Shown in pieces: positions 1 through 5,201 of a DNA stretch of 5,201 nt (positions within the stretch are counted from its first letter, which is position 1; the number at the start of each line of letters is the position of its first letter). The stretch lies in sequence record NZ_KM577619.1; one strand, 5' to 3'. A program made the position numbers. The stretch comes from a plasmid.

Positions 1-3000
1 AATGATTGCACTGTATAAATAACCAGGTGTAGCATGTATGGAAAAGCACTTTATCAATGAAAAGTTTTCACGAGATCAATTTACGGGGAATAGAGTTAAA
101 AATATTGCCTTTTCAAATTGTGATTTTTCAGGGGTTGATTTAACTGATACTGAATTTGTTGATTGTAGTTTTTACGACAGGAATAGCTTGGAAGGGTGTG
201 ATTTTAATAGAGCCAAACTAAAAAACGCTAGCTTTAAAAGCTGCGATTTATCAATGAGTAATTTTAAAAACATTAGCGCCTTAGGTCTTGAAATTAGTGA
301 GTGTTTAGCTCAAGGAGCTGATTTTCGAGGGGCTAATTTTATGAATATGATAACTACAAGGTCATGGTTTTGTAGTGCTTATATAACCAAGACAAATCTT
401 AGTTACGCTAATTTTTCTAGAGTCATATTAGAAAAGTGCGAACTGTGGGAAAATCGCTGGAATGGCACTGTGATAACTGGCGCCGTGTTTCGTGGCTCCG
501 ATCTTTCTTGTGGGGAGTTTTCATCGTTTGATTGGTCTTTGGCTGATTTTACTGGTTGTGATTTAACGGGTGGGGCGCTTGGCGAGCTTGATGCAAGGCG
601 AATTAATTTAGATGGAGTGAAGTTGGATGGAGAGCAGGCGCTTCAGCTTGTTGAGAGTTTAGGTGTTATTGTTCACCGATAAAATCTAGGTAAAAAACGC
701 CTAATGCCCCAATGTGGTACAATCAAAACGGAGCGAAGCGACATCTTCATCTTGTCTTTGCTTTTCTCCATGATCAGTTATTGGGTCATGGTCTCTTAGC
801 TCGTTAATCTGGCTAAGTTTGGTTAGGTTGGGCTTCTTTCGACACTTCGCAATCCAAGAAATCCCTAGTCCGTTGATTGGTGCTCTTATCAGGTACGCAC
901 TGTAATCTTTCGATACCGCAGCGTGATTCGGAGGTAGAGCCGGAATTTCGTTTTCCGGTACGTTTTACTACCACAATTTGCCTGTTTATCCTTTCGGAGA
1001 CCGGGCTAAGTCCGAGTCAATCAAGTGGTGCATTTGGGTTAATGTCGTTGGCTGGTATTTAATGAGAACGTGACAAGCGCCTCTCACGTTGCTAAGATTG
1101 GATTGCGACGTCTAATCTGAGCAACGAATGCACAAGATTTAGAGTACCAGAGCCCTGTGATGCTGTCACGGGGCTTTGTTACATCTGGAGCTTGGTAAAC
1201 CTCATAAATTCAATTCGCAACGCTCGCCGCAAGGCGTGAACTTGTTTCACGTCGAGGAAGCGGAATTTCTCGAAAGCCTTATACTGTCTCCGTTCACACA
1301 TGATCGGAGGGTGTCTCTATGTCTCAATTATTTCGTTTGGCATCGCCAGAAGATTACGAATACATCGAAGAATTAAATTTATGGGAATTGTCATTTGATA
1401 AGCGACCGGTTCAAGGGGTTCGTTGTGAAGATCCGGTGATCGGGGCAGAAAAATATAATCAAGGGCGTGAAAAATTTAAGGCGTTAGCGTCACGGCATAA
1501 AAAACACTGGAAACCGAACGGATTGACCTTTTCGGAGTTGATCCGCTGGGCAATAGAATGCGGAACTCCAGAACAATGTCAGCTTGTTTTAGCGTTATAC
1601 CATTGCACAAACGATGATGATTATCAGGCGATGGGAATTCAGTTAAGCCGAAGTATTGATAATGCAAATGTCAGTCCGATCATCTTTTTCACAGGTAAAA
1701 ATCAACGGTTATTAGGTGATATTTCGATGCTAAAACAGCTCGAAGAAAAGGTGCGCTGACGTTAGGTTTACCTATTATTTTATGTATTATCCTATCTATT
1801 ATTCTATCTCTTATTTTATCTATTTCGTCTGTAATAGGTAGAATAATACATAGAATAAGATACAGAATAATAGATAGACACAAGATGACGTTGTGTTATT
1901 TCTTACCCATTAATCCACCTGTTATTCTACCTATTACTTTACCCGTTATTGCACCCAATTTAGGTATAACGGGCAGAATAACGGGTGAAATAATGGGTAG
2001 AATCATAGTTTTACTAACTTGCACCCCATGATACTTTCAGTATCAATGCCACTCATTTTCTGGACGAAAATGAATGACATAAGGCTCCGCCCTCTGGCTA
2101 TTTTCTTCGGCTGGACGCCTGCGAAAAAAACCATTCACCCAAGCCCGTCAAACTCACTGCGTTCGTCTGACCACCCCCTTTTTTCGCCCCTGTATTTGGT
2201 CGCTCAAAAATGTGGTGGTCAGACGCTTCGCTTGACGGGGGGCTTTGCCCCCAAAACGAAACACGTTCACTGGGGTTCACTTGCCATCGCTGGGGCGTGT
2301 CATTTCGTTTCGGCTCCCCCTGTTTTTCCCTTTCTTCGCTGGACGCTCATCAGGATAAAAACAAAAAGCCTACCGCCCTCGTTTTACTCGGTTGGTCAAA
2401 TCGCTTCTTGCCACAAAACAAGTTTGTGACTTTCAGCGATTTCGCATCGTTTTACTTGTCAGTTTGCACGATGTTAAAAACGCACTCAGAAGCCCGCAAA
2501 ACCGTTCTAAACTTTCAGCGTAGATTTGGGTGTTTTATAGGGTGATCGTGTCTTAAAATCGTTTCGAGGGGCTTTAATGGGGATGAACGGGAGGTTTTTG
2601 CTAACTAACTCGCCCGTTTAACATAAAAGGGATTAGAGTAACCCATTTTACCGTTTAAATCGCTCAGGCTTTTTCCATGTGAAATCTTTTGCGTGTCGTT
2701 CTAACTTTCTTTGTTTTTGTGCCTTATCTGCGATTCTTTGGCTCCAGATTTGTTTATATACCGTGGCTAGCAAGGTTTTCCGTTGGTCTTTATTTAACGG
2801 TTTACCGTTTTGCCTTTCATATTCATCAAAAGCCTGCCGCATAAACGTTTTTTCTTTTCGGGTTAAGTTTTTAATCTTTCTCATGGTGATTTTATATCCA
2901 AAACTCAAATTTTGAGCAAAAAAGTGCCTAATACCTCAATGTGGTACTAATCAAAACGGAGCGAAGCGACATCATCAATTTGTCTTTGCTTTTCTCCATG

Positions 3001-5201
3001 ATTAGTTATTGGGTCATGGTCTAATTGCTCCTCAAACGCTTCAGGATGGCAATGAGGGTGATTAGGGTAGCTTCATTATGATTTCATGTTGTCTCCTGAT
3101 GGCTCTGAGGCGCTCTCAGGGGCATTCTTAGATTGGTAGTTCGGAGGGGATGCTTGTGTCAGATTACTTATACCGATTTTGTGGGCTGTTACTGAATAAT
3201 CGGAGGAAATGCAGGCGGAATTTTATGGTGTTTTTTTATGAGGGGAGATCTGGCGTTATTGCAGGCAGAGTAAGGGAAATCAGACCTTAAATGAGCCTAA
3301 AAAGAGAGGAAACCCAATGGTATATAGGGGGGCTCTTCTATATAGGTGTGTATTTATTGACGTTGTTTTTGTTAATTCAGTTAACGCATTGATTTATAAC
3401 AAAAAGAGGCTGGCGTTTTCACGCCATTGATACGCATTTATATTAGAGTAATCAGGAGGTTGCCTGTGTAGTTCTTGATAGCTGATGGTGTTGTTCATTT
3501 AAGATCTCCTTTTCGGTGATCTTAACCTGTGTGGGATAGGGCTGAGAGAAATCTCTGTGAGTCTAATAAATTAAGGGGTGTTATGAAAAGATTGTTGCTG
3601 TTGGGTTTTCTGTGTTTTCCAGCTTTAGCTGGGGCTGCTAGTTGTGATGTGGCGAATGAATATAAATCTATCTGTCTGGCTGCTGAAAAAGGGGATGCTG
3701 GCGCTCAAACTCTATTGGGGATGATGTATTACTTCGGTGATGGTGCTAAACAAGATTATCATAATGCGTTTCAATGGTTTGAAAAGTCTGCTAAGCAAGG
3801 GAATGCTAATGCTCAGGAGTTGTTAGGAGTTATGTATTATAACGGTCAAGGGGTTAAGCAGGATTATCATAAATCGTTTCAATGGTGTGAAAAGTCTGCT
3901 AAGCAAGGGAATGCTAACGCTCAAGTGAGCTTGGGAGTGAAGTATGTTACAGGCATAGGTGTTAGGCAAAATTATTATTTAGCTAAAAAATGGTTTGGTA
4001 AGGCTTGTGATAAGGGTGAGCAGGATGGATGTGATATGTATAAAAAAATCAAGCAATTGGGTTATTAAGGGCAATAGCTGCCTAATGCCCCCTATGTGAT
4101 ACCAATAGCAGGGGAGCATAGCGACTACTTCATGTAGTTCGTTTTTTAGGTTAGGTTAAGAGGCTTTTGACCTAGCAATCCGAGCGCTCTTTGTAGTGTC
4201 CTGATTTAATCTTATCGGGCATCTGATATCGTACGATGAGACGGTGACAGAGCCTACTTGTCGTTGTAGGGGCGGTATCACGTAAACCCGTTTATCTTCC
4301 TTTGAGACCGGAGCGGAGTCCGTTAAATCAGGGTTGTGCATTTGTGTTATTGTCGTTGGCTGGTATTTAATGAGAACGTGACAAGCGCCTCTCACGTTGC
4401 TAAGATTGGATTGCTGAAGTCTAATCTTAACAACGAATGTACAAGATTTAGAGTATCAAAGCCCTGTGATTATGTCATGGGGCTTTGTTACATCTGGAGT
4501 CTGATAAATTGTTAAGTAATCAAGAAATGAGATGCGCGTAAGACCCATTATGTTAAACGGGCGAGTTTACACCTCAAAACCGCCCGTTAGACGCGCTCAG
4601 AACGTCTACAATCGATTTTAAGCACCCAACTCACCCCATAACACCCAAATCCATGCTGAAAGTTTAGAACGGTTTCTGTGCCTTTCTAGTGCATTTTTAA
4701 CAATGTTTTATTTCAGGTGAAATCATTAACGTAAGGCTTAAAACAATCCATATTTATAATTGTTATTTTTTACTTTTGATAAATTTATAAAACGGGGTTT
4801 CACTAACGTAAAAACCAGAGTGGCTGATTTCATCCATGATGCTAGACCAACTTTTACCTTGTTTTTTTAATTCCATAATCTCGTCATAGATGTGATCGAG
4901 GAGCTCATTTGTTGTCGCTTTAGGATGCTCGGTCATAAAACTTTTTATTTTTTCAATCATTCTACTGCCTTGATTTTTGGCTGATATTTAATTAACTCTG
5001 TCAATTATAGAGCACTAAATTAACGGAATCATGAAAAATTTCTTATTTTTTTAAAGTGATATAGCGTAATGAGATGAAAAAATAGAAAGGGTAGATAATG
5101 ATGGATGTTAAACGCCACACAAGAGACTTGTAGCGTTTAACATAAAAGGGATTGTATGAATCAATTTTAGCTAGAGTTTAAGGTTGTTCAAATTAATGTA
5201 C

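Follow-up and report, generated by a model that had tools for sequence, protein, structure and literature searches.

Why does a small plasmid carry, in inverted orientation, two similar but diverged non-coding sequences, each of which abuts a recombination site of the Xer type? The plasmid in question is sequence record NZ_KM577619.1, and the window analysed here, i.e., the whole stretch of 5,201 nucleotides (5201 bp), is a complete small Col3M plasmid with the gene qnrD1. An initial annotation of this DNA had described an inverted repeat of about 170 bp next to two Xer-like sites, here called A and B, and had offered two explanations for it, namely a duplication of a module end followed by Xer-mediated inversion, or a functional arm comparable to the accessory sequences of cer and psi. 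Our analysis speaks against the first explanation and leads to a modified version of the second. The two copies, A and B, very probably are diverged members of one family of non-coding arms of about 147 bp, and we put the odds at about even (a probability of roughly 0.5) that this arm is accessory or architectural DNA acting in cis in Xer recombination, placed on the XerD side of the core.

An inverted repeat that adjoins two Xer cores

The repeat was examined by a repeat search of the window, by a global alignment that was compared with 1000 shuffles, and by an ungapped comparison of the 147 nt that follow the XerD arm. The search returned arms at 2472-2598/4576-4702 (127 nt, 71% complementary) and at 2607-2635/4539-4567 (29 nt, 86%), and when 2467-2643 was globally aligned with the reverse-complemented stretch 4531-4706, 128 of 180 columns were identical. 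The similarity does not stop at the 28-bp cores: outside them, 110 of 152 columns are identical, with a score of 56 against -33.8 +/- 6.0 in the shuffles (z = 15), which is far above chance. The inverted repeat therefore is real and lies where it had been placed, though the original estimate of three-quarters identity was slightly generous, the value outside the cores being 68-72% (68% for the ungapped 147 nt adjoining the XerD half-sites). The true similarity spans the two intervals given as arm copies in Table 1, plus the common XerD arm. At their outer ends, both arms terminate in an inverted sequence resembling the XerD arm, ATGTTAAAAACG in copy A (2471-2482) and ATTGTTAAAAATG in copy B (4693-4704), such that each arm is bracketed by inverted XerD-type half-sites. 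We considered a full Xer site at the outer end, or the relic of a second core in the hairpin, and rejected both, because only the XerD-arm-like half ATGTTAAAAACG is present and no credible XerC arm accompanies it.

All three Xer sites of the window (A, B and C) fit the layout of cer/psi-type cores, in which an XerC arm, a central region of 6-8 bp and an XerD arm follow one another within 28-30 bp. On the plus strand, site A reads GTTTAACATAA AAGGGA TTAGAGTAACC, with its XerD arm toward the repeat, which corresponds to GGTTACTCTAA TCCCTT TTATGTTAAAC on the minus strand; site C shares this central region and XerD arm. In A, B and C alike, and also in psi of pSC101 (GGTGCGCGCAA GATCCA TTATGTTAAAC), the XerD arm is TTATGTTAAAC. 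As had been annotated, the core lies at the inner end of each copy, with its XerC arm facing 2644-4530, and the repeats belong to the DNA outside this segment; the map of the 2683-bp plasmid described below and a step in identity at the cores both mark A, B and C as module boundaries. The segments between A and B (2644-4530) and between B and C (4559-5134) are cargo bounded by inversely oriented XerC/XerD sites. While A and C share their central region and are directly repeated, A and B are inverted and differ in their central regions at four of six positions (TCCCTT versus GACCCA), which makes an inversion by recombination of A with B unlikely.

Site C has no 147-bp arm on its XerD side, but a 15-bp inverted repeat (5105-5119/5129-5143) instead. 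This repeat pairs the XerD arm with its own inverted copy (ATGTTAAACGCCACA / TGTAGCGTTTAACAT). A hairpin directly at the XerD arm is also seen in the armless sites of loci L005 and L027, and L027 has terminator-like hairpins after the XerD arm. On the XerC side of site B, the sequence TTAACA-ACGAA-TGTACA (4427-4443) is similar to the ArcA-type box found in psi. Its distance from the XerC arm is 104 nt, as compared to 97 nt in psi, in the Salmonella plasmid p30148-2 and in the Moellerella plasmid pW18-2-c, and owing to this shift of 7 nt in register an equivalence is improbable; we therefore discarded it as a counterpart of the psi box.

Table 1. Coordinates of the features in the window
Feature	Position	Strand	Details
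Arm copy A (Col3M backbone type)	2472-2615	-	Outward from the XerD half-site of site A
Arm copy B (pSC101-family type)	4559-4702	+	
Invariant blocks of arm B	4576-4579; 4616-4622; 4657-4665; 4694-4702		AAAA; TTTTAAG; TGAAAGTTT; TTTTTAACA
Xer site A	2616-2643	-	XerD arm 2616-2626, central region 2627-2632 (TCCCTT), XerC arm 2633-2643 (GGTTACTCTAA)
Xer site B	4531-4558	+	XerC arm GATGCGCGTAA, central region GACCCA, XerD arm TTATGTTAAAC (psi-like)
Xer site C	5135-5162	-	XerC arm GATTCATACAA, central region TCCCTT, XerD arm TTATGTTAAAC
qnrD1	38-682		
146-aa open reading frame	1319-1759		
12-bp iteron-like repeat arrays	1766-2017		
Cargo segment between the XerC arms of A and B	2644-4530		Holds the 86-aa open reading frame, the Sel1-repeat protein and the non-coding tail
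86-aa open reading frame	2648-2908	-	
Sel1-repeat secreted protein	3583-4068	+	
Conserved non-coding tail of the cargo segment	4079-4508		
Remainder of the XerD-XerD segment bearing arm B	4703-5134	-	65-aa open reading frame and AT-rich region
65-aa open reading frame (ORF65)	4763-4960	-	Read toward arm B

A family of arms in fixed register

A search for further copies beside other Xer cores, as the initial annotation had suggested, found the arm in many other plasmids. Scanning one genome per species for ACACCCAAATCNNNNCTGAAAGT returned 24 loci, mostly on plasmid-sized contigs, about 20 of which were judged to be family copies by reading the output, and wherever the contig extended far enough, the ACACCCAAATC block was preceded by the XerD arm at a distance of exactly 93 nt. 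When metagenomes were scanned with a pattern fixed by the XerD arm, by AAAA at position 29 and by TTTTAAG at position 69, 63 loci with about 50 distinct variants were obtained. The block TG[AT]AAGTTT, whose spacing was not built into this search pattern, is found from position 110 onward in 37 of the 38 family members, and the remaining one has a deletion of 1 nt. Even the marine/Vibrio-like subfamily to which pVCR1 belongs, with an overall identity of only about 40%, keeps this spacing.

Apart from this single 1-nt deletion the family is free of gaps, and its blocks stay in fixed register down to 40% pairwise identity. The columns that are at least 95% conserved (30 of 147) are clustered, forming 23 runs as compared to 48.7 +/- 3.9 in permutations. 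The invariant blocks AAAA (29-32), TTTTAAG (69-75) and TGnAAGTTT (110-118) have their centres at 30.5, 72 and 114, hence 41.5-42 bp apart, and this spacing of about four helical turns would place them on one face of the helix. At its outer end the arm finishes with TTTTTAACAT, again an inverted XerD-arm-like sequence, and the sequences beyond it fall into at least four unrelated groups. The central region of the core goes with the type of arm, TCCCTT occurring mostly with A-type and GACCCA with B-type arms, with some mosaics. We are highly confident that the arm together with central region and XerD half-site makes up one conserved unit, about 165 bp long, which lies on the backbone side of the Xer site. 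Capture sites of this kind can be searched for by the signature of XerD arm, AAAA at 29, TTTTAAG at 69 and TGAAAGTTT at 110.

In the marine/Vibrio-like arms (L009, L038, L050, L059, L073, L077), the conserved distal block consists of CTGAAAG-N9-CTTTCAG, which is perfectly palindromic, and GCGATTTACAGGGCAA comes after it. The palindrome looks like an operator to which a dimeric protein would bind.

The arm is found with unrelated replicons, namely Col3M, ColE1-like plasmids with RNAI (L014, L020, L026, L028), pSC101-like plasmids and the MOBP Vibrio plasmid pVCR1. It was never observed away from a Xer core, and it abuts the XerD half-site in all loci examined. The XerC side, in contrast, differs among plasmids, beginning with the XerC arm itself, and the flanks found there are mutually unrelated. 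They are often coding right up to the core; the gene for a HindVP restriction endonuclease, for instance, ends 3 nt before the XerC arm, and other flanks carry genes for a ThsB-TIR protein, an AAA ATPase, ParA (parA) and RelA/SpoT, or qnrD. More generally, the cargo of related plasmids (L028, 3697-4758; L026, 307-1636; L014, 2689-4926; L004, 1083-2141) is rich in genes of defence and maintenance, among them a HindVP restriction enzyme with a C5 methylase, a ThsB-like TIR protein, an AAA ATPase and ParA.

One of these cargoes allows the breakpoints to be located. The parA cargo is 99.2% identical between pRS12-78 and metagenomic contigs, whereas the flanking arms are only 82-83% identical, which places the breakpoints at the cores and indicates that the arms belong to the recipient rather than to the cargo. 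The segment with arm B and ORF65, for its part, occurs in both Col3M and pSC101-like plasmids.

Separate origins of the two copies

How did two such arms come to lie in one plasmid? Copy A recurs without a single difference in the 2683-bp qnrD plasmids. Copy B has counterparts that are 100% identical in pPM14-2, 98.5% identical in pHBRJC9-qnrD1 and about 97% identical in the pSC101-like pW18-2-c. The similarity to pW18-2-c, which carries RepA of the pSC101 type as well as MobA and TraD, extends over site B, arm B, ORF65 and site C (window 4535-5168, 97% identity). There, the arm flanks a psi-like site, on whose XerC side an ArcA-type box (ATAACAAATAACTAACA) begins at a distance of 97 nt from the XerC arm, the same spacing as in psi and p30148-2. 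In pSC101 itself, copy B has a match of 82% identity in the 105 bp past the XerD arm of psi (82% also over an alignment of 131 bp with this flank), and this homology ends where IS102 has inserted; a continuation of the arm beyond IS102 was looked for in pSC101, but was not found.

Since both A and B have near-identical counterparts in other plasmids, a recent duplication is excluded as the source of the pair, and in all likelihood the copies are old relatives that were inherited separately, copy A being the backbone's own arm, while copy B came with an insert. The duplication of a module end with a subsequent Xer-mediated inversion of 2644-4530, as the initial annotation had proposed, would fit the inverted arrangement of the copies and the Xer core adjoining each of them, but it is hardly credible in view of an identity between A and B of only 68-72%, of counterparts that match each copy at 97-100% among other neighbours, of the four differences in the central regions, and of the recurrence of inverted pairs of A-type and B-type arms in 12 loci with differing cargo.

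The common 2683-bp qnrD plasmid, which has a single Xer site with arm A, maps to window 5134-5201 plus 1-2650, so that the window amounts to this plasmid with about 2.5 kb inserted at one point. It is thus close to certain that the two arm units are explained by a fusion in which a 2.5-kb segment integrated at the Xer site of the 2683-bp plasmid. The insert brought the inverted psi-like site B with arm B as well as a second site with the Col3M central region TCCCTT, and recombination of the latter with the Col3M site would have generated the hybrid sites A and C. A crossover at the core also implies that the XerC arms move with the cargo, while central region, XerD arm and 147-bp arm remain with the recipient.

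A further composite plasmid, pswupm2.1 (L006, 4942 bp), consists of exactly the 2683-bp qnrD plasmid (L001) plus the 2259-bp Col3M plasmid pswupm1.3 of a sister strain (L101), joined at two directly repeated arm-bearing sites. We do not take it as proof of an Xer-mediated fusion, because about 600 bp of backbone sequence at the junctions are common to both parents, which makes homologous recombination possible as well. Direct pairs of arm-bearing sites with the same central region occur in five assemblies. It might be tempting to conclude from the 12 inverted and 5 direct pairs that direct repeats are selected against; we rejected this, since the pairs do not represent independent events and inverted pairs always differ in the central region.

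A possible accessory role on the XerD side

The property that remains constant throughout the family is the attachment of the arm, in fixed register, to the XerD half-site of small multicopy plasmids without a recombinase of their own. A functional arm as in cer and psi, the second suggestion of the initial annotation, is in keeping with conservation that is block-wise, free of indels and spread across unrelated replicons, but the comparison does not hold in that the arm lies on the other side of the core and has neither an ARG box nor an ArcA box. An identity with the canonical psi accessory sequence was rejected for the same reason of side.

If the arm is an accessory sequence, we envisage that it would wrap or bend around host proteins, for instance a PepA-like protein, perhaps together with a factor that recognises the sequence of the TGAAAGTTT block, some 105 bp away from the core. 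Two units in direct repeat within a multimer might then synapse and be resolved, while the pair of A with the armless C, and the inverted pair of A and B with its different central regions, would remain unreactive. A requirement for two arms in direct repeat for a productive synapse would mean that neither pair reacts, and would account for the stability of a 5.2-kb plasmid with three sites.

Several observations support such a role. In the ColE1-like plasmids L014, L026 and L028, the arm-bearing site is the sole Xer site and its XerC side is coding, and accessory sequences have been reported in all small enterobacterial plasmids that bear Xer sites (PMC11724359). Similarity to cer may point in the same direction, though it is weak: a hidden Markov model (HMM) of the arm matched the cer-type accessory sequence of pJE05 at 12.3 bits in nhmmer, a score reached by none of 100 dinucleotide shuffles (maximum 5.8), and a cer HMM matched the arms at 8.1 bits (none of 100 shuffles, maximum 7.5). 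The alignment of arm and cer is colinear from the core-proximal to the core-distal end and centres on TCAGAACGCCTCAGCGCGATTTTAAG in the arm and the motif CAGAGCGATTCTGAGCGG in cer. The best-conserved block of the arm lies about 105 bp from the core, which is the distance of the ArgR box in cer.

There are, on the other hand, a number of points that weigh against an accessory role. By inspection, the arm contains no match to an ARG box or ArcA box, and at the distance where such boxes lie in cer and psi, about 80-110 bp from the core, it has the different invariant block CTGAAAGTTTAGAAC. The accessory sequences of plasmids that have been characterised all lie on the XerC side (PMC11724359). pSC101 has a proven accessory sequence on the XerC side besides the arm, and IS102 cuts the arm within its most conserved block, such that the arm must be dispensable there. 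The weak similarity to cer involves GC-rich palindromic motifs, which can be aligned in either orientation. Finally, the direct arm-bearing pairs in five assemblies imply that resolution is not very efficient, or else that these are transient cointegrates.

A more far-reaching version of the proposal would be that the arm represents an unrecognised class of Xer accessory sequence which acts from the XerD side, and that, together with the XerD half-site and the central region, it makes up a conserved "platform" retained by many kinds of small plasmids, against which cargo with only an XerC half-site is swapped. Resistance and defence genes would then be captured in a manner reminiscent of integrons, by plasmids without a recombinase of their own. 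We regard this as a tentative idea that falls short of an even chance. If it is true, the order of strand exchange or the topology of the synapse may differ from those of cer and psi.

Alternative functions of the arm

The most serious alternative to an accessory role, though in our opinion an unlikely one, is that the arm is an element of transcription, be it an outward promoter reading across the core into the cargo, a small RNA similar to Rcd, or an insulator or terminator against read-through. Cer itself contains Pcer/Rcd (PMC4393325, PMC2831885), and Guillard et al. in 2014 predicted in silico a qnrD promoter within copy A (-35 TTTTATA, -10 TCTTAAAAT) and found that pRS12-78, where an insert at the Xer site separates the copy-A region from qnrD, gave no quinolone resistance (PMC3913671). 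Furthermore, the invariant block CTTAAAAT (the reverse of TTTTAAG) is a -10-like hexamer, a conserved GC-rich hairpin lies beside the XerD arm, and the backbone genes always read toward the arm. However, a consensus scan found no sigma-70-like promoter or terminator in copy A or B, the -35 region is not conserved, and according to lists of open reading frames (ORFs) and annotations about half of the plasmids have, on the XerC side, a first cargo gene oriented away from the site, and the rest one that is read toward it, which makes a general role as an outward promoter improbable. As for an RNA, RNAalifold on 14 variants gave -8.3 kcal/mol and not a single compensatory pair among 20 predicted. 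Given this absence of covariation, and of an Rfam family, we rejected an RNA gene; the only Rfam matches, COG2827 RNA (E = 0.58) and a miRNA on the iterons (E = 0.088), were taken as chance, the latter being an artefact of the palindromic iteron repeats. A coding region was likewise rejected, because no ORF of at least 40 aa runs across arm B, and the ORFs of arm A are not conserved between the window and the 5204-bp plasmid pSm3qnr.

Could the arm instead have no function at all, and be backbone DNA that hitch-hikes with the XerD half-site as a consequence of crossovers at the core? Linkage to the XerD arm and the central region is what core crossovers would lead one to expect, and the truncation of the arm in pSC101 has no known effect. 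It is difficult, though, to reconcile mere hitch-hiking with the absence of indels, the register of the blocks down to 40% identity and the strong clustering of conserved columns, nor would it explain why the arm stays at the core in at least four unrelated types of replicon while the DNA past its outer end differs. We thus consider this improbable, and somewhat more so than a role in transcription.

A role in replication or transfer, as a component of the origin, a single-strand initiation site or an origin of transfer (oriT) that is used in trans, is very improbable. The hairpin and the AT-rich blocks of the arm might suggest it, as might the presence in many genera of qnrD plasmids that are typed as "non-mobilizable", but the RNAI and origin of the ColE1-like members are about 2.4 kb away from the arm, the mobilisable members have it at the 3' end of the mob genes rather than upstream of the relaxase or accessory gene, where an oriT would be expected, and arm B sits in a segment without a replicon. 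In 2014, a transposon-like "mobile insertion cassette" (mic) was proposed for these plasmids, on the basis of imperfect inverted repeats of 24 bp with 6-8 mismatches and a duplication of 2 bp, "CA", that surround qnrD (Guillard et al., PMC3913671). The notion that the repeats represent the ends of such a cassette can practically be set aside, given that no transposase is present, that the repeats are weak, that cargo boundaries in many plasmids are XerC arms, and that the pRS12-78 insert which these authors placed inside mic has Xer cores at its bounds.

Further features of the plasmid

The window is 98.5% identical over 100% of its length to pSm3qnr from Serratia marcescens and 99.8% identical to a plasmid of 5202 bp from Proteus terrae, and the 5.2-kb form is present unchanged in three hosts. 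The segment 4703-5134 is 97-99% identical in three of the related loci (L003, L036, L037). The ORFs of 65, 86 and 146 aa had no match in Pfam. Directly downstream of the 146-aa ORF, the 12-bp iteron-like repeats are dense and in both direct and inverted orientation, and these arrays (1766-2017) probably are the Col3M replication origin.

A segment of about 175 nt is present twice, at 1025-1199 and 4333-4508 (96% and 87% identity in two parts), and 692-807 similarly recurs at 2919-3035. Each copy of the former has a promoter-like element (1070-1098, 4378-4406) of the form GTGACA-17-TAAGAT, in which TG precedes the -10 hexamer. Downstream of it lies a GC-rich hairpin (at about 1151-1180 and 4460-4490), and the segment may encode a small RNA of about 80 nt. 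The non-coding region 692-1261 (about 570 bp) is found again beside the XerC arm of B-type sites in L003, L036 and L037.

In the Sel1 protein, which has a signal-peptide-like N terminus, the Sel1 repeats are encoded by three tandem units of 108 nt (3680-4003, 62-73% identity). Directly upstream of qnrD, on the XerC side of site C and about 50 bp from the core, CTGTATAAATAACCAG (11-26) matches the LexA-box pattern CTGT-N8-ACAG. qnrD is reported to be SOS-inducible.

Relation to known Xer systems

The closest relatives of the sites described here are cer and psi, the XerCD multimer-resolution sites of ColE1 and pSC101, respectively. Like these, they have a dif-like core of 28 bp, with an XerD arm identical to that of psi and, in site B, an XerC arm and a central region near those of psi, and they reside on small plasmids that encode no recombinase. 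They also share a conserved non-coding arm of about 150 bp in fixed register, whose best-conserved block lies about 100 bp from the core, and arm B is homologous (82%) to the DNA that flanks psi itself. The accessory sequences of cer and psi (about 150-200 bp), however, lie on the XerC side and are bound by PepA together with ArcA or ArgR, whereas the arm of the present family is on the XerD side without an ARG or ArcA box, the XerC side being taken up by exchangeable cargo. Recombination at cer/psi-type sites depends on XerC, XerD and PepA and takes place only between direct repeats on the same molecule, psi yielding a 4-node catenane. Bregu, Sherratt and Colloms (2002) reportedly inverted the psi core relative to its accessory sequences and thereby changed the order of strand exchange. 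If the arm does work as an accessory sequence from the XerD side, it would be the first natural case known of an arrangement that is otherwise met with only in engineered psi sites. It would moreover account for the way in which small plasmids of the Col3M, ColE1-like and pSC101-like kinds in Proteus, Providencia and Morganella remain stably resolved, while one half of the site is free for the exchange of qnrD, parA, toxin-antitoxin and anti-phage cargo.

The plasmids and variable segments considered here are the same as those of the mic model, but their boundaries are Xer cores and not transposon ends. The report on mic makes no mention of Xer sites (Guillard et al. 2014, PMC3913671), and a literature search, with most subscription journals outside its coverage, retrieved no description of Xer sites or of the arm in qnrD/Col3M plasmids. 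An Xer-based model would thus take the place of the transposon model for the spread of qnrD. There is a parallel to the ColE1-like qnrB19 plasmids, for which evolution through recombination at Xer and oriT sites is described in the account of Tran et al. (2012) given in PMC11832570. These, too, are small quinolone-resistance plasmids in which, according to that account, Xer sites bound variable regions. They differ from the present case, where the replicon is Col3M, the conserved flank is on the XerD side and several sites occur per plasmid.

With regard to cargo exchange, the best comparison is to the pdif modules of Acinetobacter. In both cases inversely oriented XerC/XerD sites bound the cargo, segments flanked by XerC-XerC and XerD-XerD alternate, identical cargo is found across plasmids with breakpoints at the cores, and this cargo includes resistance, toxin-antitoxin and defence genes. 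We know of no comparable conserved arm described for pdif sites. Judging from these shared features of sequence, the logic of the Acinetobacter pdif modules probably also applies to plasmids of Morganellaceae. What sets the latter apart are the hosts, with pSC101-like and Vibrio-type plasmids in addition to those of Morganellaceae, and the 147-bp arm that their sites carry on the XerD side.

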